This document shows, in pieces, positions 7,426 to 12,519 of a stretch of DNA of 64,000 nt. The DNA is from Candidatus Omnitrophota bacterium (GTDB lineage: Bacteria > Omnitrophota > Gorgyraeia > Gygaellales > Profunditerraquicolaceae), in the NCBI GenBank assembly GCA_026387355.1, contig JAPLLW010000011.1, positions 9,504 to 73,503 of the forward strand. Direction: 5' to 3'. The notes below the pieces were generated by a model. It was not told the origin of the DNA. It was given only the letters and a program-made list of their open reading frames with translations, and made no database searches. Position 1 is the stretch's first letter. Every line of letters starts with the position of its first letter. Position numbers and translations under genes: made by a program.

Positions 7426-7920
7426 TTATTTATAATTCTTGGCAGTTAAGAACCATTCTATTAACTGCTTTAATGTATTGTTAACTTCAGGGCTTAAGCC
7501 CTCACCAAAAGAAATAACCTTTGGCTGAATTGCCAAAACCATTATATCAACCTTAAAACTGTTTTTCAAATAACTGATGGCAAGCGATATGGACGCATCG
7601 TGGGTCGAAAAAAAGTTTACTGTTTGAATATCTTCTCCTTCGTACATCCTGAATTCACCGGGAGAGCCTCCAAAATCCACTGCGTCAATTATTAAAACAG
7701 TATCCGGCTTATCTTTTATAATCTTTCCAAGATAATTCTCAGGGCTTGAACTTGAGTCATAGACAATATAAGGCACCTTACCTTCTATAGCCGAAGCCAG
7801 CATTGATCCAATGCCATCGTCGCTACATAAGGTATTTCCTATACCTAAAACCAAAACTTTGCCGGTAAGATGTAACTTGAGATGCTCTAAGGCGCCTAAA
7901 TGTTCAGAACTTTTTTCCAT
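7426..7920 (-). CDS. hydrogenase maturation endopeptidase (HycI/HyaD family)
   Basis: GIGNTLCSDDGIG and DAVDFGG motifs. 164 aa. Confidence 0.75.
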   Translation of the reverse strand: MEKSSEHLGALEHLKLHLTGKVLVLGIGNTLCSDDGIGSMLASAIEGKVPYIVYDSSSSPENYLGKIIKDKPDTVLIIDAVDFGGSPGEFRMYEGEDIQTVNFFSTHDASISLAISYLKNSFKVDIMVLAIQPKVISFGEGLSPEVNNTLKQLIEWFLTAKNYK

Positions 7921-8215
7921 GACGGTGGGGCCGGGTCTTATTATACTTTATCTTCTTTAGCAGCGCTTTTTCCAGGTTTATCTTTCTTGAGCCGCAATAA
8001 TCAAATATACGAATACAGCAATCCGCTAGTTCTTCGGCTATATCTTCCTGCTTACCATCCTTACGCATCGCCTCCAACGCCTCAGATAGCTCGGAATGCA
8101 TAAGCGCAATTAACTCTCCATCATTACGCGCATCCATCCACCAACCCTTAGATTTAGCAACTCTATGGCAAACTTTAATGAAATCATTTACCGAAAGTTT
8201 TCTTTTCTCTAACAT
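7904..8215 (-). CDS. MazG-like nucleotide pyrophosphohydrolase domain protein
   Basis: All-alpha EExxE-type motifs (HSELSEALEA…IAEELADC). Confidence 0.6.
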   Translation of the reverse strand: MLEKRKLSVNDFIKVCHRVAKSKGWWMDARNDGELIALMHSELSEALEAMRKDGKQEDIAEELADCCIRIFDYCGSRKINLEKALLKKIKYNKTRPHRHGKKF

Positions 8216-8718
8216 TAATTACTCCCTTTCTCTTCTTTTACTTTTAGTGAATCTGTTAGGCCCTTAAAAATGGTATTAGCAATAGTTTCTTTTGCGTAAG
8301 TGCTAGGACTGGATACCTCAACCAGAGTTTTACCTTTACCGGTTTCTGTCAGAAATATTCCCACGGGCGTTGTATCGGTTTCAGTAAGATAGCATGCGAT
8401 AAAATCTTGCTTTAGATTATCCTCATAAACATAAACCCTGTTACTGACATTATCCTCGGTATCCTCGCTGCCAAACATACCCTTATTTCCCATAAGACTA
8501 TTAACATTCTTATTAACCATATCCTGCCTAATTATCTTCATTATCTTGCTGTGGGAAGTAACTAAATCATAATTAAATTCCTTCTTAATGGCATCTTTGC
8601 GGTGATCCTCTAAAACCTTAGTAGAAACTCCAAGAAATCCCTTAACCCCCTCTTTCATACTGCTACATCCTGCTAATATGCCTATTAATAATATCAAAAA
8701 TATCTTAAGACCTTTCAT
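8215..8718 (-). CDS. lipoprotein, unknown function
   Basis: Signal peptide with canonical lipobox LAGC. Confidence 0.5.
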   Translation of the reverse strand: MKGLKIFLILLIGILAGCSSMKEGVKGFLGVSTKVLEDHRKDAIKKEFNYDLVTSHSKIMKIIRQDMVNKNVNSLMGNKGMFGSEDTEDNVSNRVYVYEDNLKQDFIACYLTETDTTPVGIFLTETGKGKTLVEVSSPSTYAKETIANTIFKGLTDSLKVKEEKGSN

Positions 8719-8732
8719 AGCTCTTCCCCCCC

Positions 8733-10748
8733 CTATTCGTTTATAACCTTCCAGATTTTGTCCAGATTCTTACGCGCTTCTTCTTCTCCTCTACGGGCAA
8801 ACTCTGAGGCCCTGTGCAATTCAAGCCAATATAGCCCTGAAGTATCAGGATGCAAAACTATATCCGCAAGCAACCCCTCTTTTTGCGCTACCTCAGACTG
8901 AAGTATTTCAAAAGTACTAAATATAATATCCAGTATATTAGTTTTAAATAGATCTTTAAAGTGCCTGCCTAAATTAAACCAGTTCTTCTTTTTTATCTCT
9001 CCGGAGATATTTACCTTTATCCCCTGTTTTATCTTTTCGTATTGATTCAATATATCCTGTCGCGAAGGCGTAACATTAACCGCGATAATCTTTTTTACCC
9101 CCATCTTTAGAAGCGGTTCGGTGGGAAGCGGATTAGTTACCCCGCCATCAAAGAGAAATTCTTCTTTAAATTTAAAAGGCGCAAAAACTCCGGGCATAGA
9201 ACAGCTCGCCATAATTGCATCTGCCAATAAACCTTTATCGAGAACGCGAGGCTCTTTCCTTTTAACATCAGTAGCAATAATCTTAAGCGGAAGGCGTACA
9301 TCATAAAAAGTCTTATCTCCTAAATGCTTCTTCAAAAACCCATGCAGTTTATTGCCTTTAAGAAATCCGATATGCGGAAATGTCAGGTCAATCAAACCCC
9401 AGATATGCTTTGGCTCCTTAAATTCCTTCATAATCTCCAGAATCTCGGAACTTGACTTGCCAATCGCCCAAAGACTAGCAATTAGCGCCCCCATACTGGA
9501 ACCGGCAATAATATCTATCGGGATATTCTCTTCTTCAATTACCTTTAATACGCCCAGATGACAAAAACCATAACCTACCCCTACTCCCAAGACTAAACCT
9601 ACCATACATTCGCCCACATAGCGGGAGATTCTTCTTACCGCTCTGGTATACTCGCTATCCGGCTCATCCAAGACCAACCGGTCAGTAAGACCAGGCTTAA
9701 TCATAGGTAAAGTGGCAAAAATATTCCTATCTAAGATCTTAGCCTGTTCGATAGGAGTAACTTTGGAGAATTTATATTCATTGATAATAATCTTAATTTT
9801 ATCGACTTGAAAATCAAACTCTTTCTTTAACCTAAGAGTAAGATTATGCGTTTTCTCAAGCTCTGGCTCATCCGGACCACTCAATAAATGTATAAGGTCG
9901 GACTGATTCAAGATACTAAATATATTCTTATCTAGAAGCGATGGTAGGTCTAAGATCAGGTAGTGATAGTCATTTACTAACCAACTTAAGATACCCACCA
10001 GACTTCTTACGCACTGATCATCGAGCGGATTATAATAAAAACAAAGCACGTCAATCCCAAAACTGCTATTTAAGATAAAATCTTTGGCTAAGCTTGAATT
10101 CCCGGAATCCTTACTAGAAAGATCAAATACTTTCTCATTACTAATCCCCAGCCTCCCCGGTAAACTATGCTTTTTATTAGCAGAGAGTATGTCCAGTATG
10201 ATTACTGACTTACGTGTCTCATTTTTAAGGCTTAAGGCAAGATTCAAAGCATAAATTGTTTTTCCTGCCTGAGAATATGAACTAAAAACAGAGATAAACG
10301 TACTTACAAAAATTGTTTTTTGATGGACGTCTTTTCTTTTAAGCCTGCGCGATAGGGTCTTACTTAAATCAATAGCTAAACGTGGGATTTTATTAATAAT
10401 AAAATCAAAATCTTCTTTACTAATAACCAGAATCAAACAATCATTAGTTGCCTGGGCAGTAACCGAATGCGTCTCGTTTGTAAGAAGCGAGATTATTCCG
10501 AAATATTTACCTCGGTGCAGATATTCCAGTATCTTCTGTGTGCCCTGGTTATCCTTAGTGTAAATAACCACTCTTCCTTGGGCCAAACAATAAAAACCGC
10601 TAGGGGAAGATCCTTCTTGATAAATTATATCCCCTTTTTTCAATGAAATAACGCTTGAGCGCTGCATGATAATTTTGCGCTGATGGATAGATAAATCCGC
10701 AAAGATAGGAAATTCCTGGATAACTAAACTCTTATTGATTAATTCCAT
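8733..10748 (-). CDS. three-domain protein: N-terminal cNMP-binding-like (CAP effector) domain, degenerate ParA/MinD-like middle domain, C-terminal patatin-like phospholipase
   Basis: aa 1-140: CAP_ED-like (FGIISLL…HSVTAQA). Middle: ParA-like (SQAGKT, HYLILDLPSLLD). C-terminus: patatin GxSxG (AGSSMGA) and DGG (FLFDGGV) catalytic dyad motifs. Confidence 0.75.
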   Translation of the reverse strand: MELINKSLVIQEFPIFADLSIHQRKIIMQRSSVISLKKGDIIYQEGSSPSGFYCLAQGRVVIYTKDNQGTQKILEYLHRGKYFGIISLLTNETHSVTAQATNDCLILVISKEDFDFIINKIPRLAIDLSKTLSRRLKRKDVHQKTIFVSTFISVFSSYSQAGKTIYALNLALSLKNETRKSVIILDILSANKKHSLPGRLGISNEKVFDLSSKDSGNSSLAKDFILNSSFGIDVLCFYYNPLDDQCVRSLVGILSWLVNDYHYLILDLPSLLDKNIFSILNQSDLIHLLSGPDEPELEKTHNLTLRLKKEFDFQVDKIKIIINEYKFSKVTPIEQAKILDRNIFATLPMIKPGLTDRLVLDEPDSEYTRAVRRISRYVGECMVGLVLGVGVGYGFCHLGVLKVIEEENIPIDIIAGSSMGALIASLWAIGKSSSEILEIMKEFKEPKHIWGLIDLTFPHIGFLKGNKLHGFLKKHLGDKTFYDVRLPLKIIATDVKRKEPRVLDKGLLADAIMASCSMPGVFAPFKFKEEFLFDGGVTNPLPTEPLLKMGVKKIIAVNVTPSRQDILNQYEKIKQGIKVNISGEIKKKNWFNLGRHFKDLFKTNILDIIFSTFEILQSEVAQKEGLLADIVLHPDTSGLYWLELHRASEFARRGEEEARKNLDKIWKVINE

Positions 10749-10750
10749 AT

Positions 10751-11968
10751 CTATAATTTACCGGTTAAACACACCTGCGCAAATTTCTTAGCGCTCTCTC
10801 TAACTGTACGCTGAAAAGTATTGTAATCTATACCTATAAGCCCAAAGCGCGGACTAAACCCCTTATCCCACTCAAAATTATCCAAAAGCGACCAATAGAT
10901 AAATCCCATTATCTCTAAACCGCTAAGTAGCGCCTTATTTACGCTCTTTAAATGCTCCTGAATAAACTCCCATCTTAAAGCATCATCTTCTGTGCAAATT
11001 CCGTTCTCTAGAATAAACACGGGCAATTTATAACGCTTAATACTTATCAATACATCATAGAGCCCCTGCGGATATATATCCCAACCCATAGAGTTCTTTT
11101 TTAAATGATGGTGGTCTTTCTCGCAAACATCCGAAGCAAAATTCTTTATTCCCCAACCCTTAAGTTCAACCCAAGTAGGACTATAATAATTTACTCCTAT
11201 AAAATCCAAAGCTTTGTGACGGAATATCTTGTCAATAAATCCAAGGTTGTAAGATTTGTGCCTTAAATAAGCGGCGAGTTTATTCCTTAAGCTTAGGCGA
11301 CAAGGGACAAATGCCTGCATATTCTGAGCAACACTTATTTTAGGAGGCATTAAATTCTTTTCCTTATATATCTGGCGGATAAGACGATACGCCTTAATGT
11401 GAATACGCTCCAGAGTATTCATTACCCTTGTGGATTTTATTAAAGACTTCTCCTGCGGAGGCCAAAAACCTAAAAGATAGGAAAAATAGGCATAGACATT
11501 GGGTTCATTTATAGTAACCCAGAAACGCACATTATTCGCTAATACTTCTACAACCTTACTGACATAACGTAGAAAATATTTGTCAGCATCCTTATTACAC
11601 CAGGCGCCAAGAGAAGCAAACCATGCAGGATTAGTAAAATGATGCAGAGTAACTATCGGCTCAAGCCCGCGCTCCTTAAGCGCAAGGATTACTAATCTGT
11701 AATGCTCTAGTGCCTCAGATGAGAATTTACCCTCTTGTGGCTCAATGCGTGACCATTCAATTGATAAACGATGACAATTATGATGCAAAGATTTTGCTAA
11801 ATCAAGATCCTGGTTATAAAAATCATAATGCCGGCAAGCAGCGCCGGATTGATTTTTCAAATTCGCTCGCTTCTCCCACTCCCACCAGTCGCTGTAAACA
11901 TTGCCGCCTTCGACCTGGTAGGCTGAAGTAGCTGCACCCCATAGGAATCTTTTAGGAAATTCGATCAT
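10751..11968 (-). CDS. glycoside hydrolase family 1 beta-glucosidase
   Basis: N-terminal FPKRFLWGAATSAYQVEGG, catalytic TLHHFTNPAWF (acid/base NEP region) and ILENG nucleophile motif. Confidence 0.85.
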   Translation of the reverse strand: MIEFPKRFLWGAATSAYQVEGGNVYSDWWEWEKRANLKNQSGAACRHYDFYNQDLDLAKSLHHNCHRLSIEWSRIEPQEGKFSSEALEHYRLVILALKERGLEPIVTLHHFTNPAWFASLGAWCNKDADKYFLRYVSKVVEVLANNVRFWVTINEPNVYAYFSYLLGFWPPQEKSLIKSTRVMNTLERIHIKAYRLIRQIYKEKNLMPPKISVAQNMQAFVPCRLSLRNKLAAYLRHKSYNLGFIDKIFRHKALDFIGVNYYSPTWVELKGWGIKNFASDVCEKDHHHLKKNSMGWDIYPQGLYDVLISIKRYKLPVFILENGICTEDDALRWEFIQEHLKSVNKALLSGLEIMGFIYWSLLDNFEWDKGFSPRFGLIGIDYNTFQRTVRESAKKFAQVCLTGKL

Positions 11969-12054: not shown

Positions 12055-12519
12055 TTATCTACTTTTTGAAGGCGCTTTCTCTAAATTCAGGCTCTTACTT
12101 AATGCACTCCAAGTCTTCGGCCCGACTTTACCATCAGCCGTCAAACCATTTGCTTTCTGGAATTCTGCGATAGCCTTCTTGGTCTTAGAGCCAAGCTTAC
12201 CATCTACCTCTCCGGTATAAAAGGAAGCATTTTTAAGCGCTGTTTGAATTTCAACAGGCGTAGGCTTATACGGACCAGCTGGTGGCAATGACTCCAATTT
12301 ACCTGGTTTAGAAGCAGTAACAAACACCGGCTCAACCTTTATCTCAGGAGTCTTTACCTCGATTGCCTGAACAGTTGCCGGAGCTGTGGTATTCATGGTA
12401 GTAAGCGTCTCCATAGACATCGGCTGCTGCACTTCTTCTAAGGATTGCTGTTTCTTACCACATCCATATAGATAAGTTCCTAATGCAAAAACTAAAGCGA
12501 CAAAAACAAATTTCTTCAT
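12055..12519 (-). CDS. secreted/lipoprotein with C-terminal peptidoglycan-binding domain
   Basis: Signal peptide (…LYGCGKK). PG_binding_1-like repeat GEVDGKLGSKTKKAIAEFQKANGLTADGKVGPKTWSAL. Confidence 0.6.
   Translation of the reverse strand: MKKFVFVALVFALGTYLYGCGKKQQSLEEVQQPMSMETLTTMNTTAPATVQAIEVKTPEIKVEPVFVTASKPGKLESLPPAGPYKPTPVEIQTALKNASFYTGEVDGKLGSKTKKAIAEFQKANGLTADGKVGPKTWSALSKSLNLEKAPSKSR

Follow-up and report, generated by a model that had tools for sequence, protein, structure and literature searches.

The locus raises the question of what kind of protein joins a cyclic-nucleotide-binding fold, a ParA-like domain and a patatin lipase in a single chain, and whether this combination amounts to a new kind of system. 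The open reading frame lies at 8733..10748 on the minus strand of the window, i.e. the whole 64,000-nucleotide stretch of DNA that was analysed, and encodes a 671-aa protein with an ATG start in which a cNMP-fold sensor is followed by a MinD/ParA-like P-loop domain and then by a patatin acyl-hydrolase. The protein is 100% identical to the NCBI entry 'patatin-like phospholipase family protein [Candidatus Omnitrophica bacterium]' (P0001), and the AF2 model of its entire length has a pLDDT of 85.4 and a pTM of 0.82.

An earlier note on this DNA had called the three domains cNMP-like, ParA-like and patatin. All three calls were borne out by Pfam, by a family profile and by structure, and the motifs that it quoted were found where it had placed them (THSVTAQA at aa 93-100, SQAGKT at 159-164, HYLILDLP at 262-269, GVGVGYGF at 388-395, GSSMG at 416-420 and DGG at 534-536). 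The order of the domains also stood, but the start of the patatin domain, which had been put at about aa 425, was moved to about aa 383 because the RssA model aligns with aa 382-669; the ParA-like domain therefore comprises aa 150-382.

The lipase gene belongs to a broad bacterial family

The earlier note regarded the combination of domains as unusual; however, more than 100 clusters at 50% identity match the full three-domain architecture end to end, and the version found in the clade of the window protein is present in 183 GTDB species genomes. The best 80 of these 183 are all Omnitrophota, with 62-78% identity; because the genome-level counts come from an alignment of the close clade, the named taxonomy is limited to the Omnitrophota clade, and a repeated homolog search with the family profile returned the same clade again. 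A search with the middle domain only yielded only fragments of the same cNMP-ParA-like-patatin family. Thus, the architecture is common, as the note had allowed it might prove to be, while no characterised bacterial member was found. Similarly, the literature search turned up no publication that describes this architecture or a P-loop fold in PNPLA6; matches to Treponema and Myxococcus papers were set aside as not relevant to the architecture. In total, we conclude that the gene is a sound but rather ordinary annotation within a broad bacterial family and not a new kind of system.

Neither a signal peptide nor a transmembrane segment was detected in the 671-aa protein, in which the KD19 maximum is 1.8 and falls within the catalytic beta1 strand. 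The MinD-type C-terminal amphipathic membrane-targeting helix is likewise absent. A membrane tail of this kind was considered and rejected, since the strongest amphipathic helices, i.e. the C-helix of the cNMP domain and the C-terminal helix of the ParA-like domain, are both internal and no membrane-targeting sequence was found. The protein had been proposed to be a ligand-gated and membrane-targeting lipase; the second attribute is not borne out, whereas it is reasonable to suppose that the lipase may be ligand-gated.

The cNMP-fold domain carries a substituted phosphate-binding cassette

The N-terminal domain (aa 1-141; 10326..10748, minus strand) is a beta-barrel of the cNMP-binding CAP/PKA-R type with a long C-helix (aa 122-141), as judged by PF00027, Foldseek and the secondary structure of the AF2 model. 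Pfam cNMP_binding (PF00027) matched aa 34-119 with E=1.1e-21 and 77 bits, above the gathering cutoff of 27.5, and Foldseek matched the domain to CRP, GlxR and PKA-R with E of about 1e-10 to 1e-11.

In the phosphate-binding cassette (PBC) of cNMP domains, a Glu contacts the ribose 2'-OH and an Arg contacts the cyclic phosphate. In the window protein the cassette GKYFGIISLLTNETHSVTAQA (aa 80-100; 10449..10511, minus strand) keeps the Gly, while Ile85 stands in place of the canonical Glu and His94 in place of the canonical Arg, giving FGI...HSV instead of FGE...R[ST]A. The replacement of the Arg by His had been noticed earlier, whereas the loss of the Glu to Ile had been overlooked. Conservation within the clade of the window protein was counted over 161 sequences and family-wide conservation over 106 representatives. 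His94 is invariant in the clade (161/161); across the family this position is His in 84 of the 106 representatives and Arg in 13, and the canonical Glu/Arg pair is retained in 13/106. A small ligand, which in the clade of the window protein is probably not cAMP or cGMP, would bind the beta-barrel; alternatively, the beta-barrel may be ligand-free.

The patatin domain has an intact dyad and an atypical oxyanion loop

The patatin-like acyl-hydrolase of the RssA/PlpD/NTE type occupies aa 383-671 including a C-terminal helical region (8736..9602, minus strand). Pfam Patatin (PF01734) matched aa 385-546 (E=4.3e-29; 102.5 bits against a cutoff of 27.7), and the alpha/beta fold was recovered in a structural match to PlpD 5fya (E=4e-18, TMt 0.84). 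RssA/YchK and PlpD of Proteobacteria are the best matches to aa 383-671 in both sequence and structure and have the GxSxG and DGG dyad motifs in common with it. The NCBIfam RssA model (NF007623) aligned over positions 5-297 of 301 with E=4.7e-30; the score of 104.8 bits is far below the equivalog cutoff of 272. The window protein differs from RssA, which has no N-terminal sensor domains, and from PlpD, which is secreted as the passenger of a type Vd autotransporter.

As had been noted before, the Ser-Asp dyad is preserved, and the oxyanion loop lacks an Arg. The nucleophile elbow GSSMG (aa 416-420; 9489..9503, minus strand) contains Ser418, and the catalytic Asp534 lies in DGG (aa 534-536; 9141-9149, minus strand); Ser418, Gly420, Asp534 and Gly535 are each present in 106/106 family representatives. 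By contrast, the oxyanion loop GVGVGYGF (9564-9587, minus strand) departs from the canonical G-G-G-x-[RK]-G and, in lacking the Arg, from RssA and PlpD: it reads GVGVGYG (388-394) in the window protein and GSGAAxG in the family at large, against the canonical GGGxRG. The position of the Arg is Tyr393 in all 161 clade sequences and Leu in 31, Phe in 26, Tyr in 18 and Arg in 16 of the 106 family representatives. The activity or the substrate class could differ because of this loop. The basic and aromatic stretch at aa 580-601 is of low confidence in the AF2 model. Judged by its conserved motifs, the patatin domain would be active as an esterase towards lipids of the membrane or of storage.

The middle domain has the MinD/ParA fold and keeps its nucleotide site in one clade

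In single-sequence searches, the middle region gave weak matches (ParA E=0.018; CbiA E=0.021; archaeal MinD E=1.2e-3; PDB 3ea0 E=1e-4), and the domain of the window protein scored below the Pfam gathering thresholds (ParA 14.9, CbiA 15.2 and AAA_31 12.1 bits, where the cutoffs are 25-27). The isolated middle domains of relatives scored better, with AAA_31 matching 23 of 24 (best E=3.3e-10). Moreover, the family profile of the middle domain matched 3ea0 (1.3e-17), Soj (2e-12) and MinD (2e-11), by which its identity is unambiguous, and the MinD/ParA three-dimensional fold was found in the structure. Thus, aa 150-382 (9603..10301, minus strand) form a P-loop domain of the MinD/ParA fold (SIMIBI class), in line with the expectation that this region would model as a P-loop NTPase. 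Its terminal conserved helix (aa 366-378), in which Arg376 is kept in 102/106 family representatives, leads straight into the first patatin strand.

In the register given by the HMMER alignment to Soj and 3ea0, the Walker A motif is SSYSQAGKT (aa 156-164; 10257..10283, minus strand), the Walker A' Asp is Asp186 in VIILDIL (10185-10205, minus strand) and the Walker B-like motif is HYLILDLP with Asp267 (aa 262-269; 9942..9965, minus strand); an 'LNQSD' motif lies at 9891-9911 on the minus strand. Gly162-Lys163-Thr164, Asp186 and Asp267 are therefore all in place, in register with the Walker A GKT, the Walker A' Asp and the Walker B Asp of MinD, FleN/FlhG and ParA/Soj. By contrast, the deviant Walker A motif of this class (xKGGxxGK[ST]) is incomplete, as had been recognised before: YSQAGKT stands against KGGVGKT of MinD/ParA ATPases, with Tyr158 in place of the signature lysine and Ser159 and Gln160 in place of the GG pair. 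The ParA signature lysine is required for the classical ATP sandwich dimer. The window protein differs from the MinD/ParA ATPases also in that its MinD-like domain is covalently fused to an enzyme, whereas MinD and ParA act on partner proteins. In common with TadZ of the atypical TadZ/CpaE relatives (PDB 3fkq and 3ea0), the domain comes after an N-terminal domain of sensor type, which in the relative P0257 is a receiver.

The earlier description of this domain as degenerate fits the family as a whole but not the clade of the window protein. Family-wide, GK[ST] is present in 22 and the Walker B Asp in 51 of the 106 representatives, so that the nucleotide site, unlike that of MinD/ParA ATPases, is lost in most of the family; nucleotide binding is thus not essential to the core mechanism of the family. 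In the clade, however, Gly162, Lys163, Asp267 and Asn323 are each present in 161/161 sequences, as is Thr or Ser at position 164, and Asp or Glu at position 186 is present in 160/161. The mean identity of the middle domain in the clade is 62%, and 25% of its columns are at least 95% conserved, which argues that the domain is under constraint and is no spacer in decay. With the GKT and both Asp so conserved, nucleotide binding is probably retained in this clade.

The middle domain could instead be a structural pseudo-ATPase of the TadZ/CpaE kind that takes no nucleotide and serves as a scaffold for dimerisation or localisation, in which case any regulation would pass through the beta-barrel only. 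The family-wide decay of GK[ST] and of the Walker B Asp fits such a scaffold, as do the replacement of the signature lysine and of both P-loop glycines in the window protein and its scores below every Pfam ParA-type gathering threshold. Against it, the clade holds its nucleotide-site residues constant despite about 38% divergence of the domain, a pattern that would be difficult to account for if no nucleotide were bound. We therefore regard a pure scaffold as rather unlikely in this clade.

The domain order is that of NTE-type esterases

The ParA-like domain had been described as an insert between the cNMP and patatin domains. However, Pfam catalogues an 'NTE family P-loop like domain' (PF24179, NTE_Ploop) at the same position of NTE-type esterases, with a cNMP domain before it and the patatin domain after it, and the middle domain is thus no insert into the NTE plan. 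A protein of Ensifer sp. PDNC004 (L090) has a cNMP domain at 38-116, NTE_Ploop at 151-307 (E=6.5e-26) and Patatin at 324-481, and the same layout was confirmed in Methylobacterium radiotolerans WP_024827615.1; the window protein has the corresponding domains in the same order at 34-119, 150-382 and 385-546. In common with the NTE/PNPLA6/Swiss-cheese/Nte1 family, one or more cNMP domains are followed by a P-loop-like domain of about 160-240 aa and then by a patatin domain of the PlpD/RssA type, and many family members carry the JGI label 'NTE family protein'. In human PNPLA6, about 230 aa separate the last cNMP site from the patatin domain (PMC9025805).

The conserved core motifs run in the same order in both middle domains ('hhhhD...QxD-hhhh', followed by an Arg-rich helix at the end), and HMM scores between them exceeded those of shuffles (0, 0, 0 and 2 of 300). 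hhalign matched the middle-domain profile to a small NTE_Ploop-type alignment with P=4e-4 and a probability of 36%, and gave no match to one single NTE_Ploop-type sequence. PF24179 matched none of 128 family representatives (0/65 and 0/63) and none of 24 isolated middle domains; conversely, the NTE_Ploop-type proteins had no matches to ParA-type models. The middle domain of the window protein is about 70 aa longer than NTE_Ploop and has the full MinD/ParA fold with GKT. Eukaryotic NTE has an N-terminal transmembrane anchor and three cNMP domains, whereas the window protein has no anchor and a single cNMP domain; the Arg of the NTE oxyanion motif 'GGGARG' is also missing from it (PMC10708158). 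The NTE modelling in the same paper covers the patatin part only, and no NTE/PNPLA6-type structure was found in the PDB. Altogether, the similarity is remote and suggests, but does not prove, that the middle domain and NTE_Ploop are homologous.

Tentatively, the MinD/ParA-like domain might be the ancestral, still nucleotide-binding form of the NTE_Ploop of eukaryotic NTE/PNPLA6/Nte1. The NTE lipases would then go back to a bacterial lipase under the joint control of a cNMP-fold sensor and a MinD-type switch driven by ATP; the Omnitrophota proteins, with GKT and both Asp invariant, would still have this switch, and only its scaffold would survive in the eukaryotic enzymes and in most of the bacterial relatives. 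The minimal active fragment of NTE is NEST (aa 727-1216), and such an ancestry, which we consider possible but doubtful, would account for the roughly 250 residues that NEST requires ahead of its patatin domain. If true, it would also mean that NTE regulation could be studied in a soluble protein of bacteria. In humans, NTE/PNPLA6 is linked to disease, namely to neuropathy induced by organophosphates, to spastic paraplegia and to retinal and pituitary syndromes. A bacterial family that is large and soluble, has the NTE ground plan and has a middle domain that can be recognised as a MinD/ParA switch, with a complete nucleotide-binding site still present in one phylum, could be a tractable model for regulation by non-catalytic regions.

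Genomic neighbourhood of the lipase gene

The lipase gene is followed, as previously described, by a lipoprotein gene 14 nt after its stop codon and then by a MazG-like gene. The lipoprotein (167 aa, lipobox LAGC; 8215..8718, minus strand) belongs to the DUF3568 family, as assigned by profile matches in 8/20 of its homologs (best E=2.4e-5), and is the most constant neighbour, present in 81 of 84 related loci. The MazG-like NTP pyrophosphohydrolase (103 aa; 7904..8215, minus strand; Pfam MazG E=8.4e-5, with 23.2 bits where the cutoff is 22) is encoded with a 1-nt overlap with the lipoprotein gene and is syntenic in 70/84 loci with 68-86% identity. Upstream of the lipase, the earlier note had missed a GH1 glycosidase (405 aa; 10751..11968, minus strand; Pfam Glyco_hydro_1 E=4.5e-82), which has the catalytic motifs TINEP and ILENG, read from the translation; its stop codon lies 2 nt before the lipase ATG, and it is syntenic in 76/84 loci. 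Upstream of it, a PG_binding_1 lipoprotein (154 aa; 12055..12519, minus strand) is syntenic in 69/84 loci.

GH1, lipase, DUF3568 lipoprotein and MazG-like genes thus form an operon-like conserved cluster in Omnitrophota, and the lipase ranks among the best-conserved enzymes of the phylum that act on lipids. We know of no joint function of GH1, DUF3568 lipoprotein and MazG-like proteins; these partners are conserved in one clade only, and the synteny may reflect relatedness instead of function. No recurrent neighbour was common to the contexts of eight distant members outside Omnitrophota. In one of them (L096) the lipase gene follows an FGGY kinase gene and precedes genes for thiolase, 3-hydroxyacyl-CoA dehydrogenase, enoyl-CoA hydratase and acyl-CoA synthetase, a lipid-catabolic setting, and further distant members adjoin AMP-binding, acyltransferase or GDPD genes. 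The Arg-less oxyanion loop together with the translationally coupled GH1 gene weakly suggests that the substrate is a glycolipid or a neutral lipid and not a phospholipid.

Probably a housekeeping enzyme and not a weapon

The CBASS proteins CapV and CapE and the Pycsar effectors share with the window protein the concept of a nucleotide-sensing module that controls a patatin lipase, and the lipase could accordingly be imagined as an abortive-infection effector of the Pycsar or CBASS type, in which a cyclic nucleotide made upon infection unleashes the patatin domain on the cell membrane. CapV and CapE, which are cyclic-nucleotide-activated, gave structural matches with E of about 1e-12, a MazG-like nucleotide pyrophosphatase is adjacent, and PADLOC gave weak, domain-level matches for the lipase (patatin to the CBASS 'Effector Phospholipase', 7e-11; cNMP to PycTIR-type, 3e-8 to 9e-6). 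However, nucleotide sensing in CapV and CapE resides in the patatin protein and involves no CAP-type domain, and the window protein has substitutions at both PBC residues that contact the cNMP. No nucleotide cyclase or other defence gene was found near the lipase, and its neighbours gave no PADLOC match. The distribution, moreover, is neither mobile nor patchy: the gene keeps 62-84% identity, with a fixed synteny of a housekeeping kind, in at least 80 Omnitrophota species genomes, no full-length copy of the architecture was found in 50,697 phage and 72,556 plasmid records, and one relative (L096) is embedded in a beta-oxidation operon. On genomic context and distribution, a defence role was rejected as highly improbable.

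Some Omnitrophota have host-dependent lifestyles, and the protein could also be a phospholipase toxin of the ExoU/VipD type, directed by epibiotic or predatory Omnitrophota at host or prey and silenced in the producer by its N-terminal domains. ExoU and VipD are patatin effectors that likewise have no signal peptide and are active only in the target cell, and VipD was a weak sequence match. No secretion-system gene, chaperone or signal peptide was found for the lipase, however; among patatins it is closest to the RssA, PlpD and NTE types, which are housekeeping enzymes, and not to ExoU or VipD, and the family reaches lineages of 42-66% GC with metabolic neighbours. A toxin of this kind is most unlikely.

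The occurrence in 183 species, the fixed synteny, the absence from phages and plasmids and the weak PADLOC matches argue for a housekeeping and not a mobile function. We consider it fairly probable that the protein is a soluble, cytoplasmic, multi-input lipid acyl-hydrolase with the NTE ground plan that has a housekeeping function and is gated by its two N-terminal domains. Binding of ATP or ADP in MinD-like proteins typically drives dimerisation or a conformational switch. In the gated acyl-hydrolase, the MinD-like domain would take up ATP or ADP, a ligand would occupy the beta-barrel, and the conserved helix 366-378 would rigidly join the MinD-like domain to the first patatin strand, so that both N-terminal domains would gate patatin activity; the physiological role would be lipid turnover or remodelling and not killing. 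If the mechanism is merely that of a regulated housekeeping lipase, the result is a useful refinement of annotation and not a discovery. Finally, relatives place further modules before the same core, i.e. a receiver domain in P0257 and three further cNMP domains in P0264, which with four in total is comparable to the three of NTE; these additions indicate signalling modularity.

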